63,439 nt of DNA, taken from positions 1-63,439 of IMG/VR virus record IMGVR_UViG_3300044825_001916. One strand, 5' to 3'. The translations under genes were made by a program, and so were the position numbers. The notes under the pieces were generated by a model. It was not told the DNA's origin. It ran no database searches and worked only from the letters and a program-made list of their open reading frames with translations. Below, piece after piece: positions 9,314 to 56,357 of this stretch (the first letter of the stretch is position 1; each line of letters opens with the position of its first letter). The DNA is from a virus (taxonomy: Duplodnaviria > Caudoviricetes).

Positions 9314-10270
9314 TCACCGCAACAGCTCGTCGAAGTGAGGCACCAGCATCTCAAACTCTGGAGCGCCAGGGACAGGATACGCTGCCTCGCGGAGATCGAA
9401 CACCTCGCTGATGCGCGGCTTGCGGGCGCCCGTGCCGACGATGCTGTCGTAACCGTACTTCCTCGCCCGGTTGCCGATGACGTGCTCTTGCAGAGCATAG
9501 CGCATGCGATTGCCGACGCGGCTGTTGTTCACCAGCTCGGTCGCCAGAGCTGGGTTGCCGCCCCAGAGGTCCAGGAAGTCTTCGACGTTGCGGTAATAGT
9601 CGCGGCCGGCAAGAGGCGCGTTCGCGGCGTATCGGCTGTCGGACAGCATCTGCAGTAGCGTCGCCTCGTTGGTCAGCTCGCGGAACGCGCGCTCGGGCAC
9701 CGAGCCGCCCGTGTTGCCGGGAACGGCCAAAGGCGCGCGCAGGAGCGTCTCGCCTCGCACCATCTCGGAGCCGCCGTAACCGGCGGTGTTCGGCGCCCGG
9801 TAGGTGCCGACGCTGCGGGTGGGGAGCGTGGCCGGCAGGTAGAAGACGCCCTCGCGGATGGCCTCGGCCCCGGCCTGCTCGGGCTTCTGGTAACGCAGCA
9901 GCTCCAGCTGGAGGCCGTCGTCGGTGATCCGTGCGCCAGGCGTGTTCTCCACCGCCTGCAGGAAGCGGGCGTCCTGCGGCAAGCGCGTGGTCATCTGGAT
10001 GGCGCGCGCGGTGGCGGGGGAGACGATGCCGCCGAAGCCCTCGCCGAAGCCGCGGGCGATCGTGACGCCGGCGCTGGCGGGGCGCTCGCCGCGGATCTGG
10101 GCCTCGATGTCGCGCAGCTCGTCGCGCAGGGTGCGGCGCGCCGGGCGATCGGCGTCAGAAGCGCGCCCACCAGAGGCGAGCGCGAGCGGAGACCTGCGCA
10201 CAGGCATCGGCGCGGAGGCTGCCGCCCTGGCGAGGGCACCGCGGGTGGCGGTGTGGCGAGGCGTGTGCAT
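9314..10270 (-). CDS. putative ADP-ribosyltransferase-like cargo protein
   Basis: LLRYQ...GVFY...YGG...APL...GYDSIV...SEVF; N-terminal LASGG motif. Confidence 0.5.
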   Translation of the reverse strand: MHTPRHTATRGALARAAASAPMPVRRSPLALASGGRASDADRPARRTLRDELRDIEAQIRGERPASAGVTIARGFGEGFGGIVSPATARAIQMTTRLPQDARFLQAVENTPGARITDDGLQLELLRYQKPEQAGAEAIREGVFYLPATLPTRSVGTYRAPNTAGYGGSEMVRGETLLRAPLAVPGNTGGSVPERAFRELTNEATLLQMLSDSRYAANAPLAGRDYYRNVEDFLDLWGGNPALATELVNNSRVGNRMRYALQEHVIGNRARKYGYDSIVGTGARKPRISEVFDLREAAYPVPGAPEFEMLVPHFDELLR

Positions 10271-13200
10271 CAGAACTCTCGCCGGTAGCCGAGGCGGAGA
10301 CCGCGCGACGGAGCCGGGCGGTCCATCAGCTCGATCGGATCCGCGCCCGGGAGCGTGTCGGGATCGCCCATCATGCGGTCATGGTAGTCGAGCGAGAGGC
10401 GCCCGCCGCTCGGGGTCGTGTAGCCGACGCCGGCGCCGGTCATGCGGCTCTGGTTGCTGCGAAAGCCGCGCCCGCTGGCGGACACGCCCTGCTGTCCGGC
10501 GGAGAAGTCGAGCGCGGCACCATCACGGCCGACCGGGACAGCGGCGCGCGCGTTGACGCCGCCGGCAACTACCCTGCCGCCGCGGATCGGGGTGAAGACC
10601 CCACCGCCGGAGGTCTCGAGGTCCGCCTCGCGGATCAGGTCCAGGAAGCGCTGCGCCTCGTAGCTCAGCTCGGGCGATACCTGGCCGCCCTCGGCGAAGC
10701 CTGGTGTGTAGAAGCTGCGCTCGGCCCCGAAGCCGTAGCGGGTCGGGTCGCCGGAGAGGGGGGAGAAGCCGCGCGTGCCGGGGGCCGGCGCGGGCTGCGG
10801 AACCGGGGTCGGGGCCGACGTAGTCTGCACCGGATCCGGGAGCAGGTTGAAGCCGACACCAGGCGGGTTCGGGTCGCTCTCGCCACCGCCGCTGTCGGGG
10901 TTAGAGGCGGGGCCCTCGCCGGGCGTGTAGCTGACAATGCTCGGCGCAACGCCCAGAGCGTTGCCGAGCTGAGATCCGAGGTAGCCCGCAGCTAGGCCGA
11001 GGCCCGGAAGGCCAGTGGCGATGCCGGCGGCGAGACCAGCAAGCCCAGCCCCGAGGCCCACGGGATTGATTGAGGCGGCCTGGCTCTGCAGCCCGAGATT
11101 ATCCGTCAAAGTGCCGATTTGAACGCCCGGCGGCGAAAGGGCGCTCTGCAGGCCAAAGCCGATCGCCTGGTTCAGGCCGATGTCGCCTCGACCATAGGCG
11201 CCGAGCGCCTCGGCCAGGCTTGGAGCGTTGGCGAACCCGGTCGGGTTCACGCCGCCGGTGTCGGCGATGCCCACGCCGAGGCCGGCCTGCTGAGCGGCGG
11301 TGGCCGTCGACATATTCGCCGCCTGAGACGTGCCTTCGGGATCCGCCGAGGACATCCCGGCAGACGCATTGGGTCCAGGGCCGCCCTGATTGCCGTAGCC
11401 GGAACTCTCGGGGCCGAAGCCGGCGCCAATGGCGTCGCTGACGGCCGCGGCGGCATCGGGACCAGCGCCAGGGCCTTCGCCGGGGCCACTGTCCTCGCTA
11501 CTGCCGCCACCCTCTTCGCCGCCACCACCGCTGTCGCCGCCGCCGCCGTCGGATCCATCTCCGCCGCCGCCATCGCCACCGCCGCCGTCGTCGAACTCAA
11601 GGAAGCCGGTGTACGGGTTCGTGGTGCCGGATCCGCCCATGGCGGCCAGCATCAGCGCCTCGCGGGGCGTGATGTGCGCGACGAGGGTGTCGTTGCCGCG
11701 GCCCATGGCGCCCAGCATCCTGGCCAGGCCACCCTGCGCCATCATAGCGGGCTCCTGCTCCGGCATCGCGGTGGCGTACCGGCGCTGGCCCTGCTGGACC
11801 ATCTGCAGGTGGCGCTCGATCGGGCTGGGCTGACCGGCGCCCGAGCCCTGCATCTCAAGGCCCGCGATCACGTCGCGCATCACGCTCGGATCATCGGCGC
11901 GGCGCTGACGTGCGGCCGGCACCGGCGGGGCAGGCGGGGGCGGGAACGGGATCGGCATGGGCGCCTGAGCGGCCGGAGCAGCGGTCTGCTGCTGGGGCGG
12001 CGGGACGGCGCCGATGCGGGGGATGGGGGGCGGCTCGGCTGGAGCCGCGGCCTGGGGCGGCTGAGCTGGCACGCCGCGGAAGTGGTCGAGCACGCGGCCA
12101 GCGAACTCGGGGCCGGTCATGTTCTCGTTGCCGGCGTTCCAGAGAACGGCGTTCCGGCCCACGATGTCAACGGCCGGGCGGTTGCCCTGCAGCAGGCTGA
12201 CGGCGCCCGTCGCGCCCTGCTGATGCGCGAGGTAGAGCGTCGGGGCGTCGACCTCGAAGCCGCGCCGACGCAGGGCGCGCGCGTTGTCGGCCGCCAGGCG
12301 GGCCGCGGCCTCGGCGGAGGCGACCTCGTCGTAGGGATCGCGCAGGCCCATGGCCGTGGCCGTGCGGGGGATGAACTGGAAGGGGCCGGCGGCGCGCGAG
12401 TTGCGGTTGAACAGGCGCGTGCCGTCGCTGCTCTCAATCGCGCGGACGCGAGCGAGGTAGCCCTCCGGCAGGTCGTACTGCTGCTCGAGGCGCGTGTAGA
12501 GCGCGGCGCGCTCCTCCGCCGTCGGGGCGGGGCGGCGGGGGCCGCCGCGAGCTTGGCCGCCAGCTGCAAGGCGCTGGGGCTGGGCGATGCCCTCGAGCGA
12601 GCGCTCGGTGGCGGTGATGCCTTCGTCGCCGGCGTAGTTCGGGTTTGCCTCGTTCGGGTCGACTTGGCCGCCCATGGCGAAGCGGGGCATGTCGTCCTCG
12701 ATGCCCTGCTCGGCGGCGAGCGCGGCGGCCTCGGGGTAGCTGACGCCGAGCGCGGCTGCCAGACCGGCGATGCCGTACTTGCGGACGATGCGGATGAGGC
12801 GCTCGTCGAAGATGACGTAGTTGCGGGTGTTCAGCTTGTCCGCATGGGCGATCGCCTCGGCCTCGTTCGCGAACTCCGCGATCGGGCGTTGCGCGGCGGC
12901 GCCTTGGTAGACCCCCCAGCTCACGCGACCGTCGGGCTGGACGATGGGCGAGACGTCGACGTTGCGAGCGCCTCGGCTGCCGGCGTCGAGGTAGCGGATG
13001 CCGGGGATGCCGGCCTCGCGGAGGGCGCGAGACGCGCTTTCCCTGCTGCCGAGGATGCCCTCGGCCGCTTCGTAAAACTCTCCGCCAGTCGCGCTTGCGG
13101 GCACTGCGCTTTCGATGCGGCCGTACTGGCGCATGCCGGGCAGCAGTTCGCTGATGTCCTGCCTGAAAACGGGCGCATCCCAGTCGAGCAGGTCGGCGGG

Positions 13201-13872
13201 CTGAACGCCCAGCTCGACTTCGTACATGCGGCCCGGGGCCAGCGCCCGAAGCCGGGCGTCGAGGTCGCCGTAGACGCGCACGAGGTCGTCGGGCGTGGCG
13301 CGCCCTTGCTCGTATGGCCCCTGACCGCGCACGAGGCGGTCGATCATCCGCATCGCCTGCGGGTCGTCCGCGACGCGGCGCGTAGCCGGGTCGGCGAGGC
13401 GCGGCATTTCGGCGAAGGCGCGGAAGCGCTCGGCGACCTCCTCCGGCGAGCGAAGGTAACCCATGTTCGTGTTCACGAAGCGGTTCACGTCGCCAGTCGC
13501 GTCGGCGGACAGCTGGTCGCGATAGGTGCGGGCGGTCGCTTCAGCCTCGCCGAAGTAGCCGCCCGAGCCATAGGCTTGGTTACCTTCGCCCGTGCCCATC
13601 TTGTCGAGCCGGAAGCGGCCGAGCGGGAAGTCCTCAAGCACGGCCGCGCCCTCTGGTACGTCGGGCAGGCGATCGGGCGCGCCAACGAGGTACTCGGTCT
13701 GGCCGCTAGGGCGCCGGATCAAACGCTCGGCGGCGAAGTCGTGCGGGCTGCCGTGGTAGGCGCGAACGCCGGTCGAGGCCTCGGGGGCGGCGCGCTCGGC
13801 GGAGCCAGTGACGGCGCGAGCCAACGCGCCGACAGCTTTCGCGCGGCTCACGCCGTCACCGCCCCGTCGCAC
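10270..13872 (-). CDS. large modular (polyvalent-type) protein: ART-like + lytic transglycosylase + GRxxD domain + beta-barrel-like C-terminus
   Basis: YHGSPHDF..GTGEGNQAYGSGGYF; AIES..AAGPFQF..YLAHQQG; ends LRLGYRREF; start may be GTG at 13851. Confidence 0.75.
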   Translation of the reverse strand: MRRGGDGVSRAKAVGALARAVTGSAERAAPEASTGVRAYHGSPHDFAAERLIRRPSGQTEYLVGAPDRLPDVPEGAAVLEDFPLGRFRLDKMGTGEGNQAYGSGGYFGEAEATARTYRDQLSADATGDVNRFVNTNMGYLRSPEEVAERFRAFAEMPRLADPATRRVADDPQAMRMIDRLVRGQGPYEQGRATPDDLVRVYGDLDARLRALAPGRMYEVELGVQPADLLDWDAPVFRQDISELLPGMRQYGRIESAVPASATGGEFYEAAEGILGSRESASRALREAGIPGIRYLDAGSRGARNVDVSPIVQPDGRVSWGVYQGAAAQRPIAEFANEAEAIAHADKLNTRNYVIFDERLIRIVRKYGIAGLAAALGVSYPEAAALAAEQGIEDDMPRFAMGGQVDPNEANPNYAGDEGITATERSLEGIAQPQRLAAGGQARGGPRRPAPTAEERAALYTRLEQQYDLPEGYLARVRAIESSDGTRLFNRNSRAAGPFQFIPRTATAMGLRDPYDEVASAEAAARLAADNARALRRRGFEVDAPTLYLAHQQGATGAVSLLQGNRPAVDIVGRNAVLWNAGNENMTGPEFAGRVLDHFRGVPAQPPQAAAPAEPPPIPRIGAVPPPQQQTAAPAAQAPMPIPFPPPPAPPVPAARQRRADDPSVMRDVIAGLEMQGSGAGQPSPIERHLQMVQQGQRRYATAMPEQEPAMMAQGGLARMLGAMGRGNDTLVAHITPREALMLAAMGGSGTTNPYTGFLEFDDGGGGDGGGGDGSDGGGGDSGGGGEEGGGSSEDSGPGEGPGAGPDAAAAVSDAIGAGFGPESSGYGNQGGPGPNASAGMSSADPEGTSQAANMSTATAAQQAGLGVGIADTGGVNPTGFANAPSLAEALGAYGRGDIGLNQAIGFGLQSALSPPGVQIGTLTDNLGLQSQAASINPVGLGAGLAGLAAGIATGLPGLGLAAGYLGSQLGNALGVAPSIVSYTPGEGPASNPDSGGGESDPNPPGVGFNLLPDPVQTTSAPTPVPQPAPAPGTRGFSPLSGDPTRYGFGAERSFYTPGFAEGGQVSPELSYEAQRFLDLIREADLETSGGGVFTPIRGGRVVAGGVNARAAVPVGRDGAALDFSAGQQGVSASGRGFRSNQSRMTGAGVGYTTPSGGRLSLDYHDRMMGDPDTLPGADPIELMDRPAPSRGLRLGYRREF

Positions 13873-13926: not shown

Positions 13927-16503
13927 TCATGCCGCATAGGGGTTGGCCCGCCTCCTGCTAGGCTGCCAGTATTCGTCGATTTCGCGCGGGTTGGCAACCG
14001 AAACCCCCATCTTGTCCACGATCACCCGCAGCGCCTGGGTCGAGCTGTCGACGAGGTCGTCGTGGGCGATGCTCTTCTCGCCGGAGAAGCTGCAGAGCTG
14101 CTCAATGAGGGGATCGGCCCAGGATCGGGGCTGGCCGGGGCGCTTGTCGCTCTCGACGACCCAGACCATGCCGTTGGCGAAGAGGTGGCTGACCATGTGC
14201 AGGCGCTCGAGCTTGCTGGCGCGGCCGGGGTTGTAGGCCACCGCCTGGAGGCCTTCGCGGGCGAGCATCTGGCGCAGGCTGATGCCGCTGCCCTTGTCCT
14301 CGATCACGCACAGGTCGGGCTTCCGGCCCGAGGTGCCGAGCAGGGGCGCGCCGTAGATCGGGGCGATCAGGGGCTTGTCGCGGTCGCCGTACTGCACCGC
14401 CATCTCGCGCTTCGTGCGGTCGATCAGGTCGGGCATGCCGAGGCGTTCCTGCCAGCAGTCGAGCAGGAGGACGCCGTCCTGGCGGTCTTCGCGGAAGAGG
14501 CCCCAGACGCTGCACCCGGTGTAGTCGGCGTCGCCGGTCTTTGAGTTGCGCGTGGCCTCGGTGAAGGCGGTGTCGAGCGAGAGCACGATCAGGTCGAAGA
14601 CCGGCAGCGGCTTGTCGGCCGGCCAGAGCTGGATCCAGGAGCGCTTGATGATGCCCTGATCGGCCGGGTCGAGCACCTCGGCGTGGATCTCCTGCCGGCC
14701 GAGGGCGGTGCCCTCGTACTGCAGGATCTGCTCGCGGAAGGTGGGCGCCAGGTTGGCGAGGTTGGCGTAGGTCGAGGCGCGGGAGACGGTGACGTCCTTG
14801 CCTTCGCGCTTCAGCAGCCGGGTGATGATGGGCTTCGGCTTGGGCGTGGTGGAGATCACGATGCGCGGCCGATCGCCCAGGCGCATGCCAAACATGAGCA
14901 TGTCGAAGGCTTCCTCGGCCCGCTGCCAGGCCGCCAGCTCGTCGAGCCATCCGCCGTGGAACTGAGGGCCGCGGAAGCGCTCGGGGTTCTCGGCGGAGAT
15001 GCCCTTGATGAGGCTGCCGTTCTTGAGGCGCAGCTCGACGTCGGTCTTGTTGTACAGGGCGCCGCTGGAGGTGGGCTCGATCAGCTCGTGCGGGATGACG
15101 GCGAGCAGGCCGCTCTCGCCCTCGAAGCAGGTGCCGACAAGGTCGCCGTAGGTCGGTGCGGAGACGAGCCACCGGGTGCCGGGCATGGACCACGCCCACC
15201 AGCCGATGGTCTCGGCGGAGGTGCGGGTGTTGTGGGTCGGGATCATCGCCCGGCCGCAGAGGTAGAGGCGAGACGGGCTGTCGACCGTGACGCAGCGCAC
15301 GGGCACGCTGGGTACGGGCTCGACGGCGACGATGTATCGACGGCGCTGGCGGTCGGCCTGGCTGCCGTCTCCGGCCTTGATGCGGGCGAGCTTGCGGGGC
15401 AGGCGGAAGACGGGCGCGTAGGGCGTGAAGTTGACGCGGTACTTCGGACCGCAGTCGCGACCGCTTAGGGTCGCGCGGGCTTCGCGCAGCGTCGCCTTCA
15501 TGCCGAGGCCCGACACGAGGTCGAAGACGGCGTCAGCGATCGGGCGCTTGGTCGTGCAGAACTCGGCGATGCCGCGGTCGGAGACGTAGCCGTCGGTGTC
15601 CATGAGCCCCTGCAGTAGGGCAAGGCGCTGTTCGGCGGAGGCGCGCAGGTACGAGGCGGGAACGTGCTTGTTGCGCAGAACGCCCAGCTTACTCAGCCGG
15701 TGGGTAAGCGACGCCGGGTTCGGTTGGCAGCCGCTCTTGCCGGGCACCCACAACGCTTTCGCGGGGGAGATGGCGTAAGTGCGGGATGCGTTTCCGGTCT
15801 CGCGCGACTTTCCGATCGTCTCGCCGCAGCGTTTGATCTCCTCAAGCACCTCGGGGTCGGCGGTGGTGATTTCGCCGCAGGCGGAGCTGCCGTCGCCCAG
15901 CCAGGCCCCCAGGACGTAGGGGTGAATGGGCAGTTGCTGTTCTGGAAGCTCCAAGGGGAGGCAGACGCGCACCGCGTGATTGATCTCGCGCCCGTCCATG
16001 AGCGACGCGCGGATCTCGTCGGTGGTGAACGTGTTGCGATGGGAGGCGGGCTGGCACTGCGGCTTTCGCGGGTCGCCGGTGCCCGCGCAGCGGCCGGCGG
16101 CTTTGCGCGCCTTGCGCGTCTCGGTGCGCCACAGGTGCTCACCGTCGGCTATGATCTCAGATCCGTCGCTGAAGGTGACGCGGTAACACGGCCGATCGAC
16201 CATGACCGGGTGCGCCTCGATGACGCGGCAGGGGCGGCCTTGCTCGTCGAACAGGGTATCTCCGGCCTTGACCTCGCCCATGGTAGTCCAGCCGCCCAGC
16301 GTTGGCAGGGGGGTGTCGAGCGCGAGCGCCTTGCCGGCGCCGCGGCCTGCGAGGAGCAGCCAGAGCGACCACCAGTCGCCGGCGGGGACGAGCTGGTGGT
16401 CGAGGGCCTTGTCCATCCACTCGGCGTGCCAGAGGAGGCCTCGGGCGACGTCGTCGGGGAGCTTGGCGATGAGTTCGATTTCGGCGGGCGTCAGCGCGCT
16501 CAT
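13927..16503 (-). CDS. terL: terminase large subunit, intein-containing
   Basis: AGRGAGK/T Walker A, RGPQFHGGWLDE Walker B, STTPKP, SLDTAF, IEDKGSG, HDDLVDS. Confidence 0.95.
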   Translation of the reverse strand: MSALTPAEIELIAKLPDDVARGLLWHAEWMDKALDHQLVPAGDWWSLWLLLAGRGAGKALALDTPLPTLGGWTTMGEVKAGDTLFDEQGRPCRVIEAHPVMVDRPCYRVTFSDGSEIIADGEHLWRTETRKARKAAGRCAGTGDPRKPQCQPASHRNTFTTDEIRASLMDGREINHAVRVCLPLELPEQQLPIHPYVLGAWLGDGSSACGEITTADPEVLEEIKRCGETIGKSRETGNASRTYAISPAKALWVPGKSGCQPNPASLTHRLSKLGVLRNKHVPASYLRASAEQRLALLQGLMDTDGYVSDRGIAEFCTTKRPIADAVFDLVSGLGMKATLREARATLSGRDCGPKYRVNFTPYAPVFRLPRKLARIKAGDGSQADRQRRRYIVAVEPVPSVPVRCVTVDSPSRLYLCGRAMIPTHNTRTSAETIGWWAWSMPGTRWLVSAPTYGDLVGTCFEGESGLLAVIPHELIEPTSSGALYNKTDVELRLKNGSLIKGISAENPERFRGPQFHGGWLDELAAWQRAEEAFDMLMFGMRLGDRPRIVISTTPKPKPIITRLLKREGKDVTVSRASTYANLANLAPTFREQILQYEGTALGRQEIHAEVLDPADQGIIKRSWIQLWPADKPLPVFDLIVLSLDTAFTEATRNSKTGDADYTGCSVWGLFREDRQDGVLLLDCWQERLGMPDLIDRTKREMAVQYGDRDKPLIAPIYGAPLLGTSGRKPDLCVIEDKGSGISLRQMLAREGLQAVAYNPGRASKLERLHMVSHLFANGMVWVVESDKRPGQPRSWADPLIEQLCSFSGEKSIAHDDLVDSSTQALRVIVDKMGVSVANPREIDEYWQPSRRRANPYAA
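15229..16329 (-). mobile_element. class 3 (Ala1, WCT) intein with LAGLIDADG homing endonuclease, 367 aa
   Basis: Starts ALALDTP after GK; ADGEHLW; LGAWLGDG and LQGLMDTDG; VRCVTV; IPTHN/T. Confidence 0.93.
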
Positions 16504-16985
16504 GTCGGCACCTGGGCCTCAAAGAGCGAGCGGTTGATCACGTCGGTCTTGTCGACGCGCGGCCTGGACGGGGTATCCCATGATCGCCCCTTGACCTCGG
16601 CGATGAAGCGCCAGCCGGCGGCCCGAAGCGTGGCGCCGGTCTCGTCGGCCCGGATGTAGGTGCCGATGCGGCGATGGCCGAGGGCGAAGGCGGCGCGGGC
16701 GGCGGCCCCGTAGAGAAACGAGCAGGCGTTGCGCGTGCCGTCGCTGCAGAGGCGCGTGACCTCAAGGGTCAGGCCATCATCGCGAGCGCGGGAGACGGGG
16801 CGACCGACGATGCAGACGCCGACGATGCGCCCATCGGCGACGGCGCCGATTGAGAACTTGTGGCCCACCACGGGCCGGTGGTGCCTGTGGTGCCGGGAGA
16901 CGAAGTCGTTGGCCTCCTCCAGCGTCAGGGGGACGGGCGCGAGCTTCGGACCCCGGCGGCGGTCGGCTTCAGTTGGGCTGCCCAT
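16500..16985 (-). CDS. XF1762-family / Mom-like GNAT-fold protein
   Basis: EANDFV.RHHRHH.P..GHKFSIG...GRPVSR..DDG.TLEVTRLC.DGT.NACSFLY. Confidence 0.7.
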   Translation of the reverse strand: MGSPTEADRRRGPKLAPVPLTLEEANDFVSRHHRHHRPVVGHKFSIGAVADGRIVGVCIVGRPVSRARDDGLTLEVTRLCSDGTRNACSFLYGAAARAAFALGHRRIGTYIRADETGATLRAAGWRFIAEVKGRSWDTPSRPRVDKTDVINRSLFEAQVPT

Positions 16986-21140: not shown

Positions 21141-21343
21141 CGCAGCTCGAGGGGCCTGCGCCGGACGTGGTTGTGGAGGAGCTGCGGCCTGGCTTGCAGC
21201 GGCTTCTGGACGCGGTGGATGCGGTGCTGGCGGTGCCGATCACTGAAGGGGCCGAGGGCCCGCGGTTGCGGCTGGCGCTGGCGCGGGAGCGCTTCCGCCA
21301 GGCGGTGGCGCCGCGTTCTGTTGCCCAGCAGGTTGCCAACTGA
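21137..21343 (+). CDS. hypothetical protein
   Basis: ATGA coupling; RBS GGAGG. Confidence 0.5.
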   Translation: MTQLEGPAPDVVVEELRPGLQRLLDAVDAVLAVPITEGAEGPRLRLALARERFRQAVAPRSVAQQVAN

Positions 21344-21389
21344 GCAACCCCCGTTTTACGATCCGCGGATACGCGGACAGGAGGATGAG

Positions 21390-21518
21390 ATGAACAACAC
21401 GCGTGGGTTCTTTCGGACTGACTTCGGCCAGCTGCTGCTGGCATTTGGTGGGATCATGCTGGCCTCGTTCATTGGCACGATCATCGCGGGCACGCTGATC
21501 CTGGCGCTGGTGCGGTGA
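21390..21518 (+). CDS. small single-pass membrane protein
   Basis: RBS GGAGGA; hydrophobic C-terminus. Confidence 0.5.
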   Translation: MNNTRGFFRTDFGQLLLAFGGIMLASFIGTIIAGTLILALVR

Positions 21519-34430: not shown

Positions 34431-34696
34431 GCAGAAAGGAAACAAGCGCCATGTCGCATGGACCTTGGCAGCCTATTGAGACGTTCCCGCAAACATGCGA
34501 GCCCGTCCTGTGGACGGACGGGTTTCGCATGCGCGTCGCCAACTGGACGCTTGAGATGTTCGATCATCCCAACGGAACGATAGTCTGTTCCGCCGACATG
34601 GAAGAGCTTGAAGACGGAATTGCCTGGATGGCAATTCCTATCCCGCCTTCGCCGTCCGAGCGGTGGCCAACCCGCCCTTGCGCTTCGTCTTCTTGA
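34427..34696 (+). CDS. DUF551-like protein
   Basis: WQPIETFP...AWMAIP.PP; overlaps the convergent gene. Confidence 0.55.
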   Translation: MSRKETSAMSHGPWQPIETFPQTCEPVLWTDGFRMRVANWTLEMFDHPNGTIVCSADMEELEDGIAWMAIPIPPSPSERWPTRPCASSS

Positions 34697-41225: not shown

Positions 41226-42488
41226 TCACCCCGCCATCTTGAGGTAGCGCGACGGATCCTTCGCGTCGGGGCTCATGCGCCCGCGTGCGAGACCGCCCGC
41301 TTTGTGCTTGCGGATGCGCTCGCGCATCTCGTCGAGCTTCTTCGCGCCGGCGTCGGACGATCCATCGCCCAGCATGGACACTGTCTCGGCGTCGAAGACG
41401 TACTCGCCGTCCGACAATAGCGCCGGGATCCGATCCTCGCGGCCGTGGCCGTCGCCCTTGACGTAACGGCCTTGAGCGGCGCGCATCAGGCCGCCCATGG
41501 CCGCAGTCGCGCGCGGCGTTTCCGGCAGCTCGTTGTCCTCGTAGAAGTCGCGCTCGCCGCCGGTGATGGCGTAGCGCCGCATGTCGCCATCCGGCTGCAT
41601 GCGAGTGCGGCGGAACTCAACTTCCGGGAGAGGGCGGCCCATGTTCGGGTCGTTCTGCTGGGGCGCTGGAGTGGCGCCGCCAGACTGGCCGCCGCCCTGC
41701 GCGCCGCTCAGTGCGGCATTCGCAACCAACCCGAGCGCCGCTAGTTGGCCGACCCGGTTCAGCATGGAGGTGCCGCCAGCGGCTGCACCGCCAGCCCCGC
41801 CAGCCCCGCCAGCCCCGCCCGCTACTGCGCCGCCAGCGCCGGCAGCCGCTCCGCCAGCGGGTGCGGCAGCAGCCGGCGCTGCGGCGGCGGGGGCGCCGTT
41901 GAACAGGTTGTTGATCGCTGGCGCGATGCCCGAGCCCCCGGTGGGGGAGAAGATGCCGCCGGAGAAGATGCTGCCGTCTGCGGCCGGCGTCCCGGTGATG
42001 CCCATCGCCGGCAGAGCATAGCCCGCCAGGCCGCCGGTCAGGGCGCCCGTCAGAGCACCCCTACCGCCACCCGTTGCGGCGCCCAGGCCAGCGCCGATCA
42101 GGCCGGTGCCGACGGTCGACGCCGCCGTTCCGGTCAGCCCCAGCCCTGTCCCGACAGCGGTGCCCACGCCCGGGGCCAGCGCGCTTAGAGCCACCGTTGC
42201 CACCGGGGCGGCCCACTGCTTGAACCACTTCTGCTTCCAGAATGGCTTGAAGGCATACATGCCCGTGTGCGGGTTCCGCTCGGGAGGGCCGAAGTGCCGG
42301 ACCATCTCCTCGAACTCGGCCTTGTTGACGTGGACGATCATGCTGTCGCCGCCCTCGCCCGCGCCGGCGACCCGCTTGGCCGATCGGGCCAGGCCGCCCC
42401 TGGCGTAGGGGGTCGCGTCCGGGCGGCTCATGTCAACCATGACCGGCGTGTAGCTGACGCGCTCGTAGGAGACTGTGTTTCCGTTCAT
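41226..42488 (-). CDS. putative ejected protein with GxGGD...NPxTG and G..D.IPALLSDGEYV domains
   Basis: YARGG, AMGG, KAGG motifs; Gly-rich hydrophobic middle. Confidence 0.65.
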   Translation of the reverse strand: MNGNTVSYERVSYTPVMVDMSRPDATPYARGGLARSAKRVAGAGEGGDSMIVHVNKAEFEEMVRHFGPPERNPHTGMYAFKPFWKQKWFKQWAAPVATVALSALAPGVGTAVGTGLGLTGTAASTVGTGLIGAGLGAATGGGRGALTGALTGGLAGYALPAMGITGTPAADGSIFSGGIFSPTGGSGIAPAINNLFNGAPAAAAPAAAAPAGGAAAGAGGAVAGGAGGAGGAGGAAAGGTSMLNRVGQLAALGLVANAALSGAQGGGQSGGATPAPQQNDPNMGRPLPEVEFRRTRMQPDGDMRRYAITGGERDFYEDNELPETPRATAAMGGLMRAAQGRYVKGDGHGREDRIPALLSDGEYVFDAETVSMLGDGSSDAGAKKLDEMRERIRKHKAGGLARGRMSPDAKDPSRYLKMAG

Positions 42489-42489: not shown

Positions 42490-42726
42490 TCATACCTCGG
42501 CGAGCGCCATCTGAACGAACCTCTCAGCCCAATCCCGCCAATCGTCGAAGAAGTCCGGGATCGGGGGCAGTGTAGCCGAAATCTTCGGAATAGCTATGAC
42601 ACGGTTGGCCCAGTCTTTCCACATTTCCGGGTCGTCCAGCCGGGAAATGGCGCCGTACCTCTCCAGCGTCAGGGCCATCATGTCCGTCCACTCGGTGACG
42701 GTCATGTTCCGGGTCGGAAGGATCAC
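42490..42726 (-). CDS. small Trp-rich virion-cluster protein
   Basis: W..WA...P.PD.F.DW.DWAERF. Confidence 0.7.
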   Translation of the reverse strand: MILPTRNMTVTEWTDMMALTLERYGAISRLDDPEMWKDWANRVIAIPKISATLPPIPDFFDDWRDWAERFVQMALAEV

Positions 42727-44255
42727 GACAGGATCCTCGCGTCCGCAGGCTCAAGGTGGGCGATGACCTGGCCCATCTGGTAGTCGCCGCCGATCTCGTT
42801 GCTCTCAAAGATCAGCCGCAGCTCGCGGCGGATCTCCTTCAAGAACACGACCTGCTCGGAGGGGTCGGTGGCGATCGCCGGGAACGTCCGGGCATCACTG
42901 GGCACGGCCGGCGCTCGGGCGTTGTACCGGCCAGTCACGCGCACCGTCATGTTACCCCGCTGAACGAAGTCGGGCTCAATGATTGAGATGCGAATGGCCT
43001 TGTTCGTCGCGTCCTTCGGCAGCGCCGCCAGGGAGACATCGGCAGTCTCAAAGTAGGACCGGATCGCGCTGATGCTGATGCCGTCGATCTCGTCGAAGCC
43101 GGTCTCGTGCTGCCAAAGGTTCTGCGTGGCCGTCATGGGCGAGGAGCCGACCATCAGCGGCTTCGCGCTCACGTTCACGAAGATCCCGCCCGATCGGCCG
43201 GCGTTCGGCAGCACGGTGTCGTACCATGTTTGCTCGCGCACGTTGTAGATCACGGCGTGCGTGCATTCGGTCGCGTTGCCGAAGGGGAAGCACCACCAGA
43301 TCTCGCCGTACCGCGGCACCGCCATGGCGAAGACCTTCTGGCGCTGCTCGAAGTTCAGGTTGTCGAAGAACCAGTTCAGGTTCAGCGGGTTCGGCACCTC
43401 GCGCACGACGCCGTTGAACATCAGGAAGCGATCGACGCCGGCCCAGTAGTAGACGCCGTCGTACTCAATCACGCCCTGGCTCGAGAGGATCGAGCTGGTG
43501 GCGCTGACGGTGTCGAACTGGAACACCGGCGCGCCGCCCACGAAGGTCGCGCGGATCACGCTGTCGAGCGACCAGAAGATGCCGGAGGGCGAGTTGCCCG
43601 GGCCAGCGCGGAGCGGCAGCCCCTTCACGATCTTCTGGCCCGTGACGTAGCCGTCGCCGGATCCGGTGCTCGTCCAGTCGTTCGGGTTGCCAGGCACCGA
43701 CCAGGCCACATAGCCATCGGTGCCGTAGGCGAAGACGTAGGGGTGCAGCACGACGACGCCGCCCGAGACCTGCGGAGCGCTGCCGCCGGCCGCCACGAGC
43801 GCGCCACTGCCAGTCACGTCGCCGACGTAGATCGGCTTGTTCGTGGTCTCGTCCTGGTTCACGAGGTTCAGGCCGGCGTGCGCGATGAGCTTCTGGCCAC
43901 CCGTCACGCTGTCGAAGAGCACGTCGAACTGCCAGAGGTGCGCGGCATTCGACACGAAGCCGGCGGGCGTGCGGTCAGCCACCGGCGACGCGACCGCTTG
44001 GTTGTCGACGATCACCTGCTCGACGCGCGCCTGCTCGCCGACGTGGACGTAGGTCTGCCCGTTCTCGGAGAAGGCGTGCATGCCGCGAGCGACGCCCGCC
44101 AGCTGGTTCGTGGCGCGACGATAGCCGCCCATCTTGCGCGGGTAGCCGCGCTGGAAGCGGCACCACTGTCCGTCGACGTAGTGGTCGCCCTGGAAGATGG
44201 TGCCGTCGCGCTTGATGCCGGGCGTCGAGCGGATGATCGTGGGCGTTGCGGGCAT
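42723..44255 (-). CDS. tail hub/nozzle protein (P22 gp10-like)
   Basis: PGIKRDGT, W.RF.RG.PRKMGGY, EIWW.FP, YN..E..WY, IEPDFVQ. Confidence 0.75.
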   Translation of the reverse strand: MPATPTIIRSTPGIKRDGTIFQGDHYVDGQWCRFQRGYPRKMGGYRRATNQLAGVARGMHAFSENGQTYVHVGEQARVEQVIVDNQAVASPVADRTPAGFVSNAAHLWQFDVLFDSVTGGQKLIAHAGLNLVNQDETTNKPIYVGDVTGSGALVAAGGSAPQVSGGVVVLHPYVFAYGTDGYVAWSVPGNPNDWTSTGSGDGYVTGQKIVKGLPLRAGPGNSPSGIFWSLDSVIRATFVGGAPVFQFDTVSATSSILSSQGVIEYDGVYYWAGVDRFLMFNGVVREVPNPLNLNWFFDNLNFEQRQKVFAMAVPRYGEIWWCFPFGNATECTHAVIYNVREQTWYDTVLPNAGRSGGIFVNVSAKPLMVGSSPMTATQNLWQHETGFDEIDGISISAIRSYFETADVSLAALPKDATNKAIRISIIEPDFVQRGNMTVRVTGRYNARAPAVPSDARTFPAIATDPSEQVVFLKEIRRELRLIFESNEIGGDYQMGQVIAHLEPADARILS

Positions 44256-45559
44256 CAGCCACCCAGCGCGATTGAGTAGGCGAGGCTGTCGGACGCGACC
44301 TGCGCAAGCTGAGCGTTGGACGGCGCGTCAATGGCCGCGCGAGCCGCAGCTTGGTTGGCGGCCGTGACGACTGCGTCGCCTACCGCAGTAATGCCGACGG
44401 CGCCTCGTGCGGCGGCCTGGGAAGCGGCCTGGAAGACCGCCACGCCCGTACTAGTGCCGCCCAGGTTGATCAGCGCAGCGCCTGCGGTGGTGGCGCCGGT
44501 ACCGCCTTGCGCGACCGAGACCGGCACCGCGAGGCCTGCGGTATCGGCCGGCACGACGTTGGTGCCGTCGCAGTAGAGGATGGCGCTGGCGCCCTGAACG
44601 ACGGCCACGCCCGTGCCGGCGGCCGTCTTCACCGTCAGCGTGAAGGCGCCCGTCGTCGCGTTGGTCACCCAGTACTGCTGCACCGTCGTCGGGACGACGA
44701 TCTCGCGGTTCGCAATCAGCGCGCCGGTGAAGCGGTAGGCGATGCGGTTGAGCTGGCCGCCCGTCAGCACGAAGGGTCCGCCGCCGGAGACGTTGATCGC
44801 GGTGTAGTCGAAGGCAAAGGTCGCGCTCTGGCCGAGACCGATCGTGTAGAAGCCGATGCCGTCGCAGACCACGAAGCAGCTATCGCCAGGCTGCAGCGAA
44901 ATGGTGGTCAGCCCGTTGATCGTCTGCGGCCCGGTCGGGTCAATCGTGAGCGCGCCGGAGCCGGAATTGCGAACCAGCACGAACCAATCCGAGCCGAGCG
45001 TCGAGGCGTCATCCGGCACCAGAGATCCGGCCGTGCCGGAGTAGAGCAGCAGCGACGCGCGGTCGTTAACGCCGGTGATGTAGCCGGAGCTGCTGAAGGA
45101 GATGACCGGAACCGACTGGTTCAGCGTCGTCGAGATCGCCTTGATGCCAGCCCCGGCGAGGGCGGCGGCATTCGCGACGGAAATCGAAGCACCGTATTGA
45201 AACACCCGCCAGGTTCCGGCGGCGGTGGTGTTGTCGGTCAGGTAGATCTGCCAAGCCGAGCCGGGGGCGATGGAGACGAGAGCGGCGCCGGCGGCGCTCT
45301 GGATCACGACGTTGTTGAGGCCGACGTTGTTGAACAGGACAGTCTCGCCGACCGACACCTGCGTCGCGTCAGGCATCCGCAGCGCGAGCGAAGGGGCGTT
45401 CGCGGTCACGTCGATGATCGCGGCCACAGGAAGGCCGCCGCTGCTCTCGAGCGGCCAGCTCAGCTGCAGCGGACTGTTGGCGCCCGTCAGGGCATAGGAG
45501 GCATAGGAGACCTGGGCGGGTCCGATCGGCGTTCCACCGAAGACGGAAGTGTAGGACAC
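44255..45559 (-). CDS. tail protein (needle/fibre base)
   Basis: Beta-rich; V.N.T.G.FTLTVKT..GTGV; ends SIALGG. Confidence 0.65.
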   Translation of the reverse strand: MSYTSVFGGTPIGPAQVSYASYALTGANSPLQLSWPLESSGGLPVAAIIDVTANAPSLALRMPDATQVSVGETVLFNNVGLNNVVIQSAAGAALVSIAPGSAWQIYLTDNTTAAGTWRVFQYGASISVANAAALAGAGIKAISTTLNQSVPVISFSSSGYITGVNDRASLLLYSGTAGSLVPDDASTLGSDWFVLVRNSGSGALTIDPTGPQTINGLTTISLQPGDSCFVVCDGIGFYTIGLGQSATFAFDYTAINVSGGGPFVLTGGQLNRIAYRFTGALIANREIVVPTTVQQYWVTNATTGAFTLTVKTAAGTGVAVVQGASAILYCDGTNVVPADTAGLAVPVSVAQGGTGATTAGAALINLGGTSTGVAVFQAASQAAARGAVGITAVGDAVVTAANQAAARAAIDAPSNAQLAQVASDSLAYSIALGG

Positions 45560-45561: not shown

Positions 45562-46215
45562 TCAGGCCTCCCGCCGCTGGGCGTTGCGGTCGATGATCTT
45601 CTGCGCGTCCTCGGCCGCGAGCAGGCCAACCGCCTCGTCGTAGTAGGACTTCCAGGTCGCGATGCGCTCGTCGTTCTTCAGGAACGGCGTGGCCTCGAGG
45701 AGCGACCCATAGAGCAGCGCCTGGGGCGCGTACTCGGTCAGCCAGTTGGTCTGCAGGTCGTCGCCCAGCAGAGGCGGCAGCGCATAGTAGAGCACCTCGA
45801 ACGGGTAGGCCCGGTCGGGCGTCGGCGTGATCAGCCAGTGCTGGTAGTTATAGTCGGCGTAGAACTTCGGGGCGCCGCGCTGCGTCTCGTCCGGCCAGAA
45901 GTTCCGGCAGTACTCGTAGGAGCGGCCGAAGATCGGCGTGCGCTCGTTGAAGGTGGCGCCGCCGCCGAAGTTGAAGGAGATCGTGTCGCGCCACCGATCG
46001 GGCTTGGCGTAGACCGACGTGCCGGCCGCCATGGTGGTGGTGACGACTTCGGTCGTGCCCTGGATCTTCAGCTGCCGCGCAAGGCGGCGCTCGCAGAACC
46101 CGATGAAGGTCGGGATCTCGTTGTGGACGGTCGGGTCGCTCGCCTCGGTCAGGCCGCGCTCAAGGTAGCGGGCGATGTCCGCTTTGAGCGAGGCGTAGGT
46201 CATGGCGGTTGCCAT
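45562..46215 (-). CDS. head-tail adaptor protein
   Basis: MTY.SL..DI..YLER, PTPD..Y, TNWL...AP.ALLYGSL.EA.PFLK.DER. Confidence 0.8.
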   Translation of the reverse strand: MATAMTYASLKADIARYLERGLTEASDPTVHNEIPTFIGFCERRLARQLKIQGTTEVVTTTMAAGTSVYAKPDRWRDTISFNFGGGATFNERTPIFGRSYEYCRNFWPDETQRGAPKFYADYNYQHWLITPTPDRAYPFEVLYYALPPLLGDDLQTNWLTEYAPQALLYGSLLEATPFLKNDERIATWKSYYDEAVGLLAAEDAQKIIDRNAQRREA

Positions 46216-49342: not shown

Positions 49343-50107
49343 CTAGCTCAGAAGCTGGCCGGTAAACGAACCGTTGCCGGGCTCAAACTGAGGGGCGCCT
49401 GTAAATACGTTAACATCGACGTAATCGTTTGCATTCATCCGCAATACAACAACTCCGGCTTTCCAAGTGTATCCAAAGGAAACACCAACAATTTCAACTC
49501 TGCACGCCGTTGCCCCATTAAGGCGAATGTCAAATCCATATGCGCTGCCTTGACCGCCATTAGCAGTGAACAAATAATTTCCCGTCACAGGGGCGGTAAA
49601 CCTGCCTGTGCTGCTGTTATAGTGGCTGCCAATGTTATGATAGATGTTGTCAAACAACACTACGCCCGTCACGCTATTGGCGTTGCTCCTGCTCACCCGA
49701 AAAGAGGGCTGAGATGATATCGTGAACTGACCATTGGTGTTGATGCGGGCGCGTTCGCCGTTGTTGACATAAAATGTCAACGGGTGGTTCGTCACCGTCC
49801 CAACCGCACCGAGCGTGTTGAGTTGGTCGGTCCACATACCCTGCGTGACCGAAGAAGTCCTTAGCAGGATGTCGGCGTATTGGGTTGTGGACTGAACACC
49901 AATTCTCGCGCCCGGCGTCGTCGTGCCGATGCCTAGGTTCCCACTGGCATCTAGGCGCATGACCTCCGTGCCGCCTTCGGCAAAGGCGATGGTGTCAGCC
50001 GCAGGGAAAAACATCCCGGTGTTGCCGTCAGTGCCCTGCACGGCGGGCGTTGCGGCAGAGCCGTCCGTGCCAGAGATGCCGGTGGAGCCGTTGATGATGA
50101 CGGGCAT
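49343..50107 (-). CDS. tail fibre protein with C1q-like C-terminal domain
   Basis: GNLGIGTTTP repeat; FD...NIGSHY...TGRFTAPV.G.Y.F...ANDYV...F.G.L. Confidence 0.8.
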   Translation of the reverse strand: MPVIINGSTGISGTDGSAATPAVQGTDGNTGMFFPAADTIAFAEGGTEVMRLDASGNLGIGTTTPGARIGVQSTTQYADILLRTSSVTQGMWTDQLNTLGAVGTVTNHPLTFYVNNGERARINTNGQFTISSQPSFRVSRSNANSVTGVVLFDNIYHNIGSHYNSSTGRFTAPVTGNYLFTANGGQGSAYGFDIRLNGATACRVEIVGVSFGYTWKAGVVVLRMNANDYVDVNVFTGAPQFEPGNGSFTGQLLS

Positions 50108-51625: not shown

Positions 51626-51807
51626 TAGGTCACAGTCCAAACGGAACCCGAACCAACCGTCACGACCACCCCGGAGGCGACCGTCACCGGCCCCGCCGTC
51701 ATGGCGTTGTAGTTGGTGGGGATCGTGTAGTTCGCCGACACGATAGTCGGGTTCACGAAGAACGTGGCCGCCACTGGCCCAACGGGCTGGTTGCCGAGAT
51801 AAATCAT
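51625..51807 (-). CDS. small fibre-connector protein
   Basis: NYTI...NAM.AGPVT...G..VTV..GS.W. Confidence 0.7.
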   Translation of the reverse strand: MIYLGNQPVGPVAATFFVNPTIVSANYTIPTNYNAMTAGPVTVASGVVVTVGSGSVWTVT

Positions 51808-51809
51808 GA

Positions 51810-52133: not shown

Positions 52134-52154
52134 CTGGAAGCTCCTTGTGTCAGC

Positions 52155-54913: not shown

Positions 54914-55965
54914 CGGGTATATGGCCGCAGGTTCGGGGCGATCTTCATCGGCGAGCTGTCGCGCTCCTCGAAGAAGCAGGTCGCCAGCGCCTCGTCCGCC
55001 AAGCCCTTCAGCGTGCCAATCATGCTCGCCTCGACCTGGGGCGTCTCGAGCGCCAGGCGATAGGCCAGCATCGCCACGAGGCCCTCATACCAGCGCTGCG
55101 GGATGTCGAGCGTCTGCGTCAGGCGGCCGACGTCCATCAGGTAGCGCCGGCGCCAGGTCACGATCTGGTTGAACTGCTGGGCGTAGCCCGGCACCGGCCA
55201 GAGCCGGATGATGGGCACCTCGCGCTGGCGATCAAGCCAGAACTGCTGCGGGCGACCCTGGAAGGTCTTGTTCGGGAAGTTGACGTAGTCGTCCTGGTTC
55301 AGCCGGGCGAGCGGGATCTCGGTCGGGTTGAAGCCGGGGTAGAACTCCGCGACGTTCAGTATCGTGCCGTTGATGGCGCGCAGGCGGTAGAAGGACATCG
55401 GGAGCGCGCCCTCGACGTCGAACCACCGAAAGACGCGGCCCTGGTAGAGGAGCGGCCCGGGCGCCAGCGCGGTCATCCAGGTGATGCCGTCGGTCGAGGT
55501 CTCCACGACGAAGTCGTAGGTGCCGGTCGCGGTCGTCGCGATGCCGTAGGTCGTGACCGCCATCTGCGACTGGCCGGCGAGCGTGATTGAGCCGTTGACC
55601 GTCGCCTGGGTGCAGGAGGTCAGCATGTCGCCATCGAAGGCGTTGTCGGCGATGCCGCTTGAAGAGCTGTAGGAGCCCTCAATCCGCTGCATGGTGCGGA
55701 TGTTCGTGTTCAGCAGGTCGACGGTGCCGACGGGCGTGTCGACGTAGGAGACGCCGTAGGTGAACGGCAGGATGGTCTTCTCGACCGTCCAGAGGGGCAG
55801 GCCCCGGTTCACGAGGTCGGACATCAGCAGGTAGAGCGCGTCGCGCGCCAGATCCTGCATCTCGGCCGTGATCGCCTGCGGCGGGAGCCGGCAGCGACGA
55901 TACGCGTGATCGACGACCTTGTTCGTGTCGAAGACCGTCGTGGATGTCGTACCGGAGACCGTCAC
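54910..55965 (-). CDS. head-tail connector with inserted discoidin-like domain
   Basis: A.RRC...NRG..LW; Y...PNK...GRP.Q.W; LWPVP; insert NAFDGD...STDG.TW...YRLR. Confidence 0.65.
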   Translation of the reverse strand: MTVSGTTSTTVFDTNKVVDHAYRRCRLPPQAITAEMQDLARDALYLLMSDLVNRGLPLWTVEKTILPFTYGVSYVDTPVGTVDLLNTNIRTMQRIEGSYSSSSGIADNAFDGDMLTSCTQATVNGSITLAGQSQMAVTTYGIATTATGTYDFVVETSTDGITWMTALAPGPLLYQGRVFRWFDVEGALPMSFYRLRAINGTILNVAEFYPGFNPTEIPLARLNQDDYVNFPNKTFQGRPQQFWLDRQREVPIIRLWPVPGYAQQFNQIVTWRRRYLMDVGRLTQTLDIPQRWYEGLVAMLAYRLALETPQVEASMIGTLKGLADEALATCFFEERDSSPMKIAPNLRPYTR

Positions 55966-56054
55966 GTCACGACCCTACCGCGAGGAACGGCCCGCAAGCC
56001 GAGCCGTTCCCACCATACACACCGAGCTGGCGAAATGCCAACTTTCGGGCCACT

Positions 56055-56357
56055 TCAGCAGCCGACCTTGCCGCCATTGGCCTTCATGGCCTTCATGACC
56101 GGGCCGCCCTTCTTCAGCCCCTTCATGGACTGCTGGGCGTCGTGCTTCTTGTCGGCGGCCGACATCTCCCACTTCTCCAGGGACATGCCGTGCTTCTTCG
56201 CCAGCTTCCTGTCCTGGGCCAGGTCTTCCTTGGAGTGTTCCCACTCCTGCGAGGAGACCTTGCCGCCGCGGGCGTAGGCCTTGACCATGGTCTTCCCAGC
56301 CGAGCCGGTGAAGCCCTTGTCGGAGGGAAACTGGAACTCGCCGTACTTGATAGCCAT
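56055..56357 (-). CDS. small basic protein with three xxGG motifs
   Basis: YARGGKV, LKKGGPV, KANGGKV; WE.S..D repeat. Confidence 0.7.

Follow-up and report, generated by a model that had tools for sequence, protein, structure and literature searches.

A recurrent Gly-Gly heptapeptide in presumed internal proteins of a podovirus clade, a candidate docking or assembly tag

Introduction

Unrelated internal proteins that phage T4 injects carry a capsid-targeting sequence at their extreme N-terminus, which the prohead protease removes. Encapsulins dock unrelated enzymes inside an HK97-fold shell through cargo-loading peptides, which are short, contain glycine, sit on a flexible linker and are usually terminal. 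Double-glycine leaders are N-terminal and are cut during export by a dedicated transporter with a C39 peptidase domain. To our knowledge, the loading of ejection and effector proteins by podoviruses is largely unknown outside T4 and P22. Here we describe a heptapeptide, with the favoured form [FY]-A-x-G-G-x-[VA] and looser forms such as [LM]-[AK]-[KR]-G-G-x-[VA], that recurs in five late genes (g318, g1200, g1243, g420 and g100) of IMGVR_UViG_3300044825_001916 (63,439 bp; Duplodnaviria; Caudoviricetes), which is a complete virus record in IMG/VR and is referred to below as the window. The motif is real and enriched, it belongs to one gene class, it is conserved at the protein level, it is biased towards protein termini and it is linked to swappable cargo domains.

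Like the T4 signal, the heptapeptide is a short peptide common to unrelated proteins, which we propose to be internal to the head and injected. However, within its carriers it may lie in the interior, close to the N-terminus or at the C-terminus, it is often present in several copies, and no protease was found in the open reading frames (ORFs) scanned, which were 30 whole ORFs plus three extra pieces of g1200 and g1243 for Pfam, and 30 ORFs for PHROGs. The analogy to T4 drawn in a first-pass annotation of this DNA thus holds as a functional likeness, but not for the features that define the T4 signal. A possible likeness to encapsulin cargo-loading peptides lies in the terminal bias, in the linker-borne position, in the ART-PolyVal, SLT and DUF7178 domains that the motif flanks and in a capsid protein of the HK97-fold type, whereas half of the copies are internal, the motif is often multi-copy and the cargo would have to exit through the tail. 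Double-glycine leaders have Gly-Gly in common with the window motifs, but the latter are not leaders and their flanking consensus is different; the scanned ORFs gave no match to a C39 peptidase or an ABC transporter.

Other parallels concern the carriers. As do polyvalent proteins, g1200 combines two or more predicted effector or enzyme domains in one virion-module polypeptide, an ART-PolyVal-like and an SLT domain, and the C-terminal domain of g1243 is swapped among relatives. The searched text of PMC5512222 proposes that zincin-like peptidases process polyvalent proteins, yet a junction motif is not reported in it ("linker" and "glycine" occur 0 times each), and no zincin-like processing peptidase was detected in the scanned ORFs. 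The window shares with SU10 and T7 the gene order from nozzle to ejection genes and has an SU10-family adaptor and a nozzle with solved relatives. The ejection proteins of SU10 have no resolved density in the head, according to the searched parts of PMC9509320 and PMC8954989, which fits disordered proteins. However, none of the 16 SU10 proteins examined, ejection proteins gp20-24 included, contains the canonical heptapeptide, and neither do T7 gp13-16 or any of the 13 T7 virion proteins examined; T7 gp6.7 and gp7.3 contain loose Gly-Gly elements only. The motif appears to be undescribed, since literature searches on ejection-protein targeting and packaging signals, on HMO-2011 virion proteomics and with the literal motif strings, which did not cover supplements, returned no description, and the searched parts of PMC8954989, PMC9509320, PMC4819975, PMC10386132 and PMC5512222 leave it unmentioned.

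Results

Enrichment in five late genes

All 14 copies listed in the first-pass annotation are present in translated minus-strand genes, within about 12 nt of where it had placed them (Table 1), and g1243 contains a degenerate extra copy, KGGLATA. The copy in g318 occupies residues 10-16 if translation starts at Met22. Enrichment was assessed in 53 ORFs, comprising 17,012 amino acids (aa), by comparison with 400 shuffles in which residues were permuted inside each protein, either over its full length or in blocks of 30 aa. The pattern [FYML]AxGG, taken over from the first-pass annotation, was observed 11 times versus 3.35 +/- 1.7 expected, a count that none of the 400 shuffles reached. The heptapeptide [FYML][AS]xGG[QKLRA][VA] was observed 10 times versus 0.35 expected, again with 0/400 shuffles attaining the count, but this excess is inflated because the pattern, unlike [FYML]AxGG, was written after the instances had been seen. 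Composition does not explain the excess. All 10 heptapeptide matches lie in the five genes named in the first-pass annotation, as do nine of the 11 [FYML]AxGG matches, the other two being in ORFs elsewhere.

Structural proteins of the same genomes, used as controls, contain Gly-Gly at 10.2 per 1,000 aa versus 9.5 in the ejection module, with no instance in motif form. Since the densities are similar, what sets the motif proteins apart is the sequence that surrounds Gly-Gly rather than the amount of glycine. The ten window copies are written in differing synonymous codons, in line with the codon usage of the genome, indicating that the constraint acts on the peptide rather than on the DNA; a DNA-level repeat, for example a recombination linker, is ruled out by this variation.

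Distribution among relatives

At least 587 viral contigs encode a relative of the nozzle, and there are at least 6,834 relatives of the capsid protein. We assembled 93 related loci, 13 fetched through g361 and 80 through the nozzle alignment, in which 1,197 plus-strand ORFs were called greedily. The pattern [FYW]AxGGx[VIAL] gave 70 matches in this set, 31 of them in the 67 g420 homologues (shuffle mean 2.1), 14 in the 20 g1243 homologues (0.7), five in the 62 g361 homologues (0.9) and 18 in 682 unassigned ORFs (4.5), which mostly lie 4-8 genes downstream of the nozzle or are small Lys-rich ORFs 7-13 genes upstream of it. The last two are in one g100-like and one g1200-like ORF. No match was found in the nozzle (91 proteins, shuffle mean 1.0), the adaptor (85 proteins, 0.1) or g582 (15 proteins, 0.1), and the first-pass remark that the motif was not seen in this arrangement in fibre genes extends to the relatives, with no match in 84 fibre-like g434 proteins (2.0) or 19 fibre proteins (0.6).

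Gene order points to the same class of proteins. In the window and five relatives that are 94-100% complete and have a guanine-cytosine (GC) content of 51-65%, 20 of 21 strict matches fall in three synteny classes of presumed internal proteins, namely the ejection module (10), the interval from the capsid gene to g351 (six) and inserts between the terminase (TerL) and portal genes (four). The 270 other ORFs contain a single strict match, and the 76 core structural or lysis ORFs are free of it. For the Caulobacter phage GB2A, the 33.9 kb examined hold no more than two motif-like copies; the g420 homologue carries the motif in GB2A and RW. CRP-901 and HTVC023P lack the canonical heptapeptide over the 38-41 kb that were examined, and gp36 of roseophage CRP-3 carries F-S-K-G-G-L-T at its DUF7178 border and F-A-E-G-G-M-A elsewhere. 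On these comparisons, the motif characterises a single clade and turns up in outliers such as CRP-3 as well.

Position and surroundings of the motif

Terminal bias was evaluated for 69 matches in non-identical ORFs against 2,000 simulations that placed matches at random in the same proteins. Within 60 residues of the N-terminus there are 21 of the 69 (7.9 expected; 0/2,000 simulations reach 21), and 10 lie 11-30 residues from the C-terminus (2.5 expected; 0/2,000 reach 10), while four lie within 10 residues of the C-terminus (1.4 expected; 122/2,000 reach four). Overall, 35 of the 69 copies are terminal, versus about 12 expected, and 34 are internal, the range extending from residue 8 to the last residue. 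The position also moves between homologues: the g361 proteins of five loci (L009-L012 and L093) have the motif about 20 residues from the C-terminus, whereas g361 of the window has none. Shifts of this kind are what a mobile linear motif typically shows.

The sequence around Gly-Gly is patterned on either side. Ala2 is found in 69 of 69 contexts and Val/Ala7 in 67, although both are partly imposed by the search pattern, and degenerate x-G-G-[LM]-[VI] copies precede many canonical ones. That the motif lies at the borders of unrelated modules, as first suggested from the window alone, is supported by where homology ends. A location after low-complexity linkers is seen in single cases such as g1243, but not as a general statistical feature, the fraction of Pro, Gly, Ala and Ser in the 15 upstream residues being 0.38 versus 0.40 at random sites in the same proteins. 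The surroundings are predicted to be disordered. An AlphaFold2 model of g420 from a 24-sequence alignment, which has a mean predicted local distance difference test score (pLDDT) of 44 and at such low confidence shows predicted disorder only, places the motifs at residues 28 and 329 in coil and that at residue 396 at the end of a helix (residues 379-401).

The motif at the border of a swappable domain in g1243

g1243 consists of an N-terminal phrog_5880 domain (aa 27-639), a Pro-rich linker and a C-terminal DUF7178 domain (aa about 900-1218). While the linker has undergone many insertions and deletions, the G-F-A-K-G-G that follows it is invariant in eight of eight close homologues, in which the block G-F-A-K-G-G-[QR]-V-K-E-P-K-M-S-P-I is nearly invariant. 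Beyond this region the C-terminal domain is exchanged in three of seven relatives (L003, L005 and L007), where unrelated domains replace DUF7178 and the N-terminal 770 residues, including two motifs, are retained. Judged by alignment, this is swapping of presumed cargo on a conserved carrier.

The assignment of the C-terminal domain (aa 900-1243) to DUF7178 comes from its alignment, of which 74 of 86 members match PF23802. The window sequence itself remains below the Pfam cut-off, a 354-aa piece giving E = 0.026 and 14.9 bits (cut-off 27) and a 344-aa piece no PF23802 match at E <= 0.01. A search of 1.84 billion cluster representatives returned 845 relatives at E <= 0.001, from which the best 150 that are each at most 50% identical to the others were scored; 148 align to the domain end, where 12 terminate, leaving 136 scorable. 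GGx[VI] directly follows the conserved R-G-E-x-P-L in 44 of these, 39 of which have it 7-40 residues from the C-terminus. Another 51 have Gly-Gly followed by a Gly/Ala-rich hydrophobic stretch lacking the x-[VI] of the motif, and 41 have no Gly-Gly at the border. The motif is therefore conserved at this module border in distant homologues too, whereas a lack of such conservation had been named in the first-pass annotation as grounds for refutation. In one relative (G005), DUF7178 and motif form a separate gene of 269 aa with the motif at its end.

The DUF7178 model is all-helical (pLDDT 93, predicted template modelling score 0.89), and its last helix stops six residues before the motif. The Leu-Tyr pair is ordered (96 for the 10-residue block), and pLDDT falls to 57 and then 48 from A-E-G-G onward. 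The earlier label "glycosylase-like" is at best a lead, in that the model resembles 8-oxoguanine DNA glycosylases only weakly in Foldseek (E = 0.23 at best, with a probability of 0.96 and template modelling scores of 0.32 and 0.49). From this model, DUF7178 may be an injected DNA-acting enzyme.

Domains and modules in g1200, g420 and g100

In g1200, an ART-PolyVal-like domain (aa 35-399 about) is followed by an SLT-type transglycosylase (aa 418-599 about; PHROGs 22520, 2013 and 4067), Pro- and Gly-rich linkers and a C-terminal domain. The N-terminal domain has 1,178 matches at E <= 0.001, down to 3e-76, many of which carry PF18760 ART-PolyVal. Its gene lies between those for terminase and portal, and the domain may act as an ADP-ribosyltransferase carried in the virion. 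In the ESM Atlas this domain and g318 both give sub-threshold leads to ART-PolyVal (scores 0.86-0.88). Among the 120 listed ART-PolyVal-like homologues, 11 have a loose motif, with six strict matches versus 1.0 expected, and in one the domain is flanked by the motif on both sides; since only 11 of 120 are tagged, the tag is an add-on and not part of the domain. GB2A has no gene at the position of g1200.

Some copies open small shared modules. About 10 residues after YARGGLA in g420 and MAQGGLA in g1200 stands G-x-G-[GN]-D-[ST]-x-[IV]-[VA]-H-[IV], which reads D-S-M-I-V-H-V in g420 and D-T-L-V-A-H-I in g1200. These strings may resemble a TonB box. In g1200 the module runs from G-x-G-N-D-T-L-V-A-H-I to N-P-x-T-G-x-x-E-F and a poly-Gly/Asp tract, and it is common to gp46 of Methylophilales phage Venkman, phage DSL-LC04, Manatee Spring contigs and one of the related loci (L016, 4968-5876). 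A-M-G-G-L-M of g420 opens a different module, D-x-I-P-A-x-L-S-D-G-E-Y-V, which is retained throughout the g420 family as well as in GB2A gp065c, annotated as tape measure protein, and which in many members of the family ends in a C-terminal Y-[LM]-x-G-G-[RL]-[VAT]. At the C-terminus of g420 this widespread mini-module reads D-x-I-P-A-x-L-S-D-G-E-Y-V-x-D-A-E-T-V, and it is seen at one related locus (L015, 4516-6258) as well as in phrog_6090 tape measure proteins and CRP-3 gp36.

The g100 family has at least 110 homologues of 55-175 aa, annotated at most as "hypothetical protein", none of which matches Pfam save for one unrelated precomputed PF01118; g100 itself is discussed with the proteases below. 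They are Lys/Met-rich mosaics, dense in isolated Gly-Gly (21.5 per 1,000 aa) with the profile [LMY]-[KA]-[KR]-G-G-[KM]-[VAT], often between repeated helical units. One such repeat of about 27 aa includes K-A-K-G-G-K-V-H-E-D-E-A-M-D-K-K-L-V. A C-terminal Cys or the tail G-K-T-K-G-K-F-I is found in many members. Sequence searches of the PDB with g100, g420, g361, the portal, g351 and the DUF7178 profile yielded nothing usable.

Genome context

Late genes are nearly all on the minus strand, and GC content is 60-70% along the window. The segment 2873-7644 is repeated at 58669-63439 with 99.8% identity, so that one genome unit amounts to about 55.8 kb and the record has redundant ends. The adjoining segments 1-2872 and 55796-58668 differ except for two short matches (172 and 189 nt), and each end version contains an ORF with an Endonuclease VII domain. 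To all appearances, the assembly runs across a variable region and covers more than a single genome length. The terminal repeats of GB2A are identical and 2.9 kb long.

With homologues of both adaptor and nozzle, the window encodes an SU10-type podovirus tail. The nozzle g510 is related to nozzle chains 8zkk and 8zkm and to 9nwi_Y (E = 1e-9 to 3e-11), the last being deposited under the name "Capsid and scaffold protein". It is followed by g420, g361, g582 and g1243, at the place where T7 and SU10 have their ejection genes. Further genes encode fibre-like proteins and a GH108 endolysin. Homologues of the fibre-like g434 terminate in 57 of 82 cases in Gly-Gly plus at most three residues, an ending that is distinct from the heptapeptide. 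The major capsid protein also matched PHROGs named "protease", but the alignment falls on the capsid part of those profiles. The terminase insert is an intein-like LAGLIDADG/Hom_end element (aa about 282-357), and the lengths of terminase relatives, 491 to 1125 aa, suggest that the presence of the intein varies.

The GroES/Cpn10 homologue has the mobile loop K-S-A-G-G-I-I-L. A homologue is annotated in CRP-901 and HTVC023P, GB2A gp089c has a GroES-like mobile loop, and by these matches GroES is a conserved feature of the wider phage group. The nearest isolates are the Caulobacter phages GB2A, RW, RLK and KcrB (capsid protein identity 82.9%); more distant relatives are HMO-2011-type roseophages and some pelagiphages.

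Table 1. Positions of the motif copies, their genes and other features of the window
Feature	Coordinates	Strand	Remarks
g318	9314-10270	-	between g1200 and portal
LASGGRA in g318	10160-10180	-	
g1200	10270-13872	-	polyvalent cargo-type; 4 motifs
FAMGGQV in g1200	12661-12681	-	
LAAGGQA in g1200	12550-12570	-	
MAQGGLA in g1200	11722-11742	-	
FAEGGQV in g1200	10678-10698	-	
N-terminal domain of g1200	12673-13872	-	ART-PolyVal-like
Module opened by MAQGGLA in g1200	11590-11742	-	
g1243	34638-38369	-	large internal protein (presumed); 3 listed motifs plus KGGLATA
FAKGGQV in g1243	36258-36278	-	
YSRGGAV in g1243	36138-36158	-	
YAEGGKV in g1243	34695-34715	-	
KGGLATA in g1243	34659-34679	-	degenerate
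C-terminal domain of g1243	34641-35672	-	DUF7178
g420	41226-42488	-	first gene after nozzle; predicted largely disordered
YARGGLA in g420	42387-42407	-	
AAMGGLM in g420	41484-41504	-	
KAGGLAR in g420	41283-41303	-	
Mini-module of g420	41283-41504	-	
g100	56055-56357	-	small, Lys/Met-rich, mosaic family; 3 motifs
YARGGKV in g100	56256-56276	-	
LKKGGPV in g100	56097-56117	-	
KANGGKV in g100	56064-56084	-	
g361	40136-41221	-	DNA ejection protein, phrog_4287; no motif in the window
g582	38371-40119	-	ejection-module protein; degenerate PAGGLAA at residues 6-12
ORF with [FYML]AxGG	21171-21518	+	
ORF with [FYML]AxGG	49343-50107	-	
Major capsid protein	2867-3781	-	304 aa; Phage_capsid_4
GroES/Cpn10 homologue	5878-6348	-	head module, between portal and capsid protein
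Portal	6697-9276	-	phrog_1216
Large terminase with LAGLIDADG intein	13927-16503	-	858 aa
Mom-like DNA modification protein	16500-16985	-	phrog_1384, E = 2.4e-37; directly upstream of terminase
Nozzle, g510	42723-44255	-	synteny landmark; no motif
g434	44255-45559	-	fibre-like; C-terminal Gly-Gly
Adaptor, g217	45562-46215	-	SU10-type; PF24175 SU10_adaptor, E = 1.7e-29
Endonuclease VII-domain ORF	2082-2801		first end version
Endonuclease VII-domain ORF	56927-57370		second end version

Discussion

Why the same seven residues recur in unrelated proteins of one gene class can be answered in several ways. We tentatively favour the reading that the heptapeptide serves the internal proteins, both ejection and cargo proteins, as a common short linear tag for docking or assembly, a reading that is plausible though far from assured. 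According to this model, an autonomous linear motif would mark the internal proteins of a podovirus clade and would be recognised by a common putative receptor, as a result of which unrelated enzyme modules would enter the procapsid or become attached to the pre-ejectosome. This receptor might be the inner side of the capsid, the portal, the scaffold or a hub ejection protein. The first-pass annotation had proposed either a portable tag or a double-glycine processing site; the former is partly supported by the restriction to one gene class, the conservation, the swappable cargo and the proximity to termini, while the latter emerges weaker. Binding by the motif, its receptor and the presence of its carriers in virions are what we infer from these patterns.

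It is possible, if rather doubtful, that the heptapeptide is a universal portable "load-and-inject" address used by a highly abundant group of podoviruses from the environment, which would dock proteins in the procapsid, release them on maturation and have them delivered with the DNA. The docking site would then be the capsid protein or the hub ejection protein, and the portal would be an alternative candidate. The capsid protein is the most conserved core protein, with a mean identity of 84% to five relatives versus 35-60% for the others, and this would suit a conserved receptor. A complex prediction for the capsid protein with g100 scored 0.00 in both runs, with an uncertain fold for g100 itself, and it weighs neither for nor against this.

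Several points weigh against a docking or assembly tag. The argument from capsid conservation is weakened because conservation does not track motif number, the motif-poor GB2A, with its two motif-like copies, having a capsid protein of 82.9% identity. No receptor was identified, and the placement of motif carriers in the virion derives from synteny and PHROG names. The three synteny classes that hold 20 of the 21 strict matches were defined after the pattern had been seen, and all counts overstate the number of independent events because the sequences are related. Since the canonical motif is absent from what was examined of CRP-901, HTVC023P, SU10 and T7, it follows no general podovirus rule. 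Finally, the aromatic residue at the DUF7178 border is packed on the domain in the model, and a plain cap and hinge would explain that one site.

Such a cap and hinge is the core of the alternative that survives best, although we consider it unlikely for the motif as a whole. Without any partner, a hydrophobic cap followed by a Gly-Gly hinge could be favoured in proteins that have to remain unfolded, traverse the tail channel and refold afterwards. The DUF7178 model, in which disorder begins right at the glycines after an ordered Leu-Tyr, would be in keeping with this idea, as would the 51 of 136 homologues that have Gly-Gly without x-[VI] and the predicted disorder of much of the motif proteins. 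However, a hinge leaves the conserved Ala2 and Val/Ala7 unexplained, and it does not account for the absence of the motif from the ejection proteins of SU10 and T7. Moreover, the same heptapeptide occurs where no folded domain lies upstream, as at the site after the Pro-rich linker of g1243, at the N-terminus of g420 and in small Lys-rich proteins.

Some eukaryotic viruses mature core proteins with proteases that cut after Gly-Gly, and ubiquitin-like proteins mature by the trimming of short C-terminal extensions. By analogy, a phage or host protease might cut after Gly-Gly in the window proteins, separating cargo modules or trimming such extensions, a reading that we regard as distinctly unlikely. 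The location at borders of unrelated modules and the patterned residues on both sides of Gly-Gly would agree with a processing site, and proteolytic processing of polyvalent proteins is proposed in the searched text of PMC5512222. However, no peptidase family matched any of the scanned ORFs, in accordance with the first-pass annotation, which had recognised no prohead protease; neither did a family of virus-encoded cysteine proteases, the single match, of g100 to Peptidase_C70 (E = 0.0058, 17 bits) lying below the cut-off of 19. Four copies are within 10 residues of the C-terminus, tandem copies 5-12 residues apart would give tiny peptides, and relatives with split genes keep the whole heptapeptide, including the residues after Gly-Gly, on the upstream module. 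As far as sequence can tell, C-terminal copies, tandems and split genes make a simple cut after Gly-Gly less likely.

The disordered translocation domains of colicins engage periplasmic or envelope proteins, and one could imagine the heptapeptide as an epitope for a host factor, either a periplasmic or envelope protein encountered after ejection or a chaperonin encountered before packaging. The motif is kept in relatives whose GC content spans 51-65% and whose hosts probably differ, which could indicate a conserved host target. The GroES/Cpn10 gene in the head module, the degenerate x-G-G-[LM]-[VI] upstream of many canonical copies and the possible TonB-box likeness of the module behind the motif in g1200 and g420 would also fit a host factor. 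However, GroES also occurs in the relatives with few or no motifs, GB2A, CRP-901 and HTVC023P; gene and motif thus do not vary together, for which reason we have demoted mimicry of the GroES mobile loop. In addition, the residue after Gly-Gly is often polar (K, Q or R), whereas the phage GroES loop has a hydrophobic triplet. An epitope of this kind is thus quite improbable. An artefact of Gly/Ala-rich composition, a chance pattern or a DNA-level repeat, to which a GC-rich genome with Gly- and Ala-rich proteins might be prone, can practically be dismissed given that shuffles preserving local composition never attain the observed count, that controls equal in Gly-Gly have none in motif form and that the copies differ in synonymous codons.

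The observation itself appears robust and extends to a very large clade of mostly uncultured phages, whose cultured members infect Caulobacter, and a docking or assembly tag is the best available reading of it, with processing the weaker one. A tag that sits on unrelated enzymes would offer an experimental handle, through mutation or fusion to a reporter, and it would make injected cargo predictable from metagenomic contigs. The enzymes concerned are an ADP-ribosyltransferase-like domain, a transglycosylase and the DUF7178 domain. If the heptapeptide were indeed a "load-and-inject" address, sequence alone could reveal the cargo repertoire of these phages, and seven added residues could be enough to have a foreign protein packaged, possibly opening a route to programmable protein delivery. 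Even should the motif prove to serve processing or recognition by a host factor, it would still mark a class of internal proteins.

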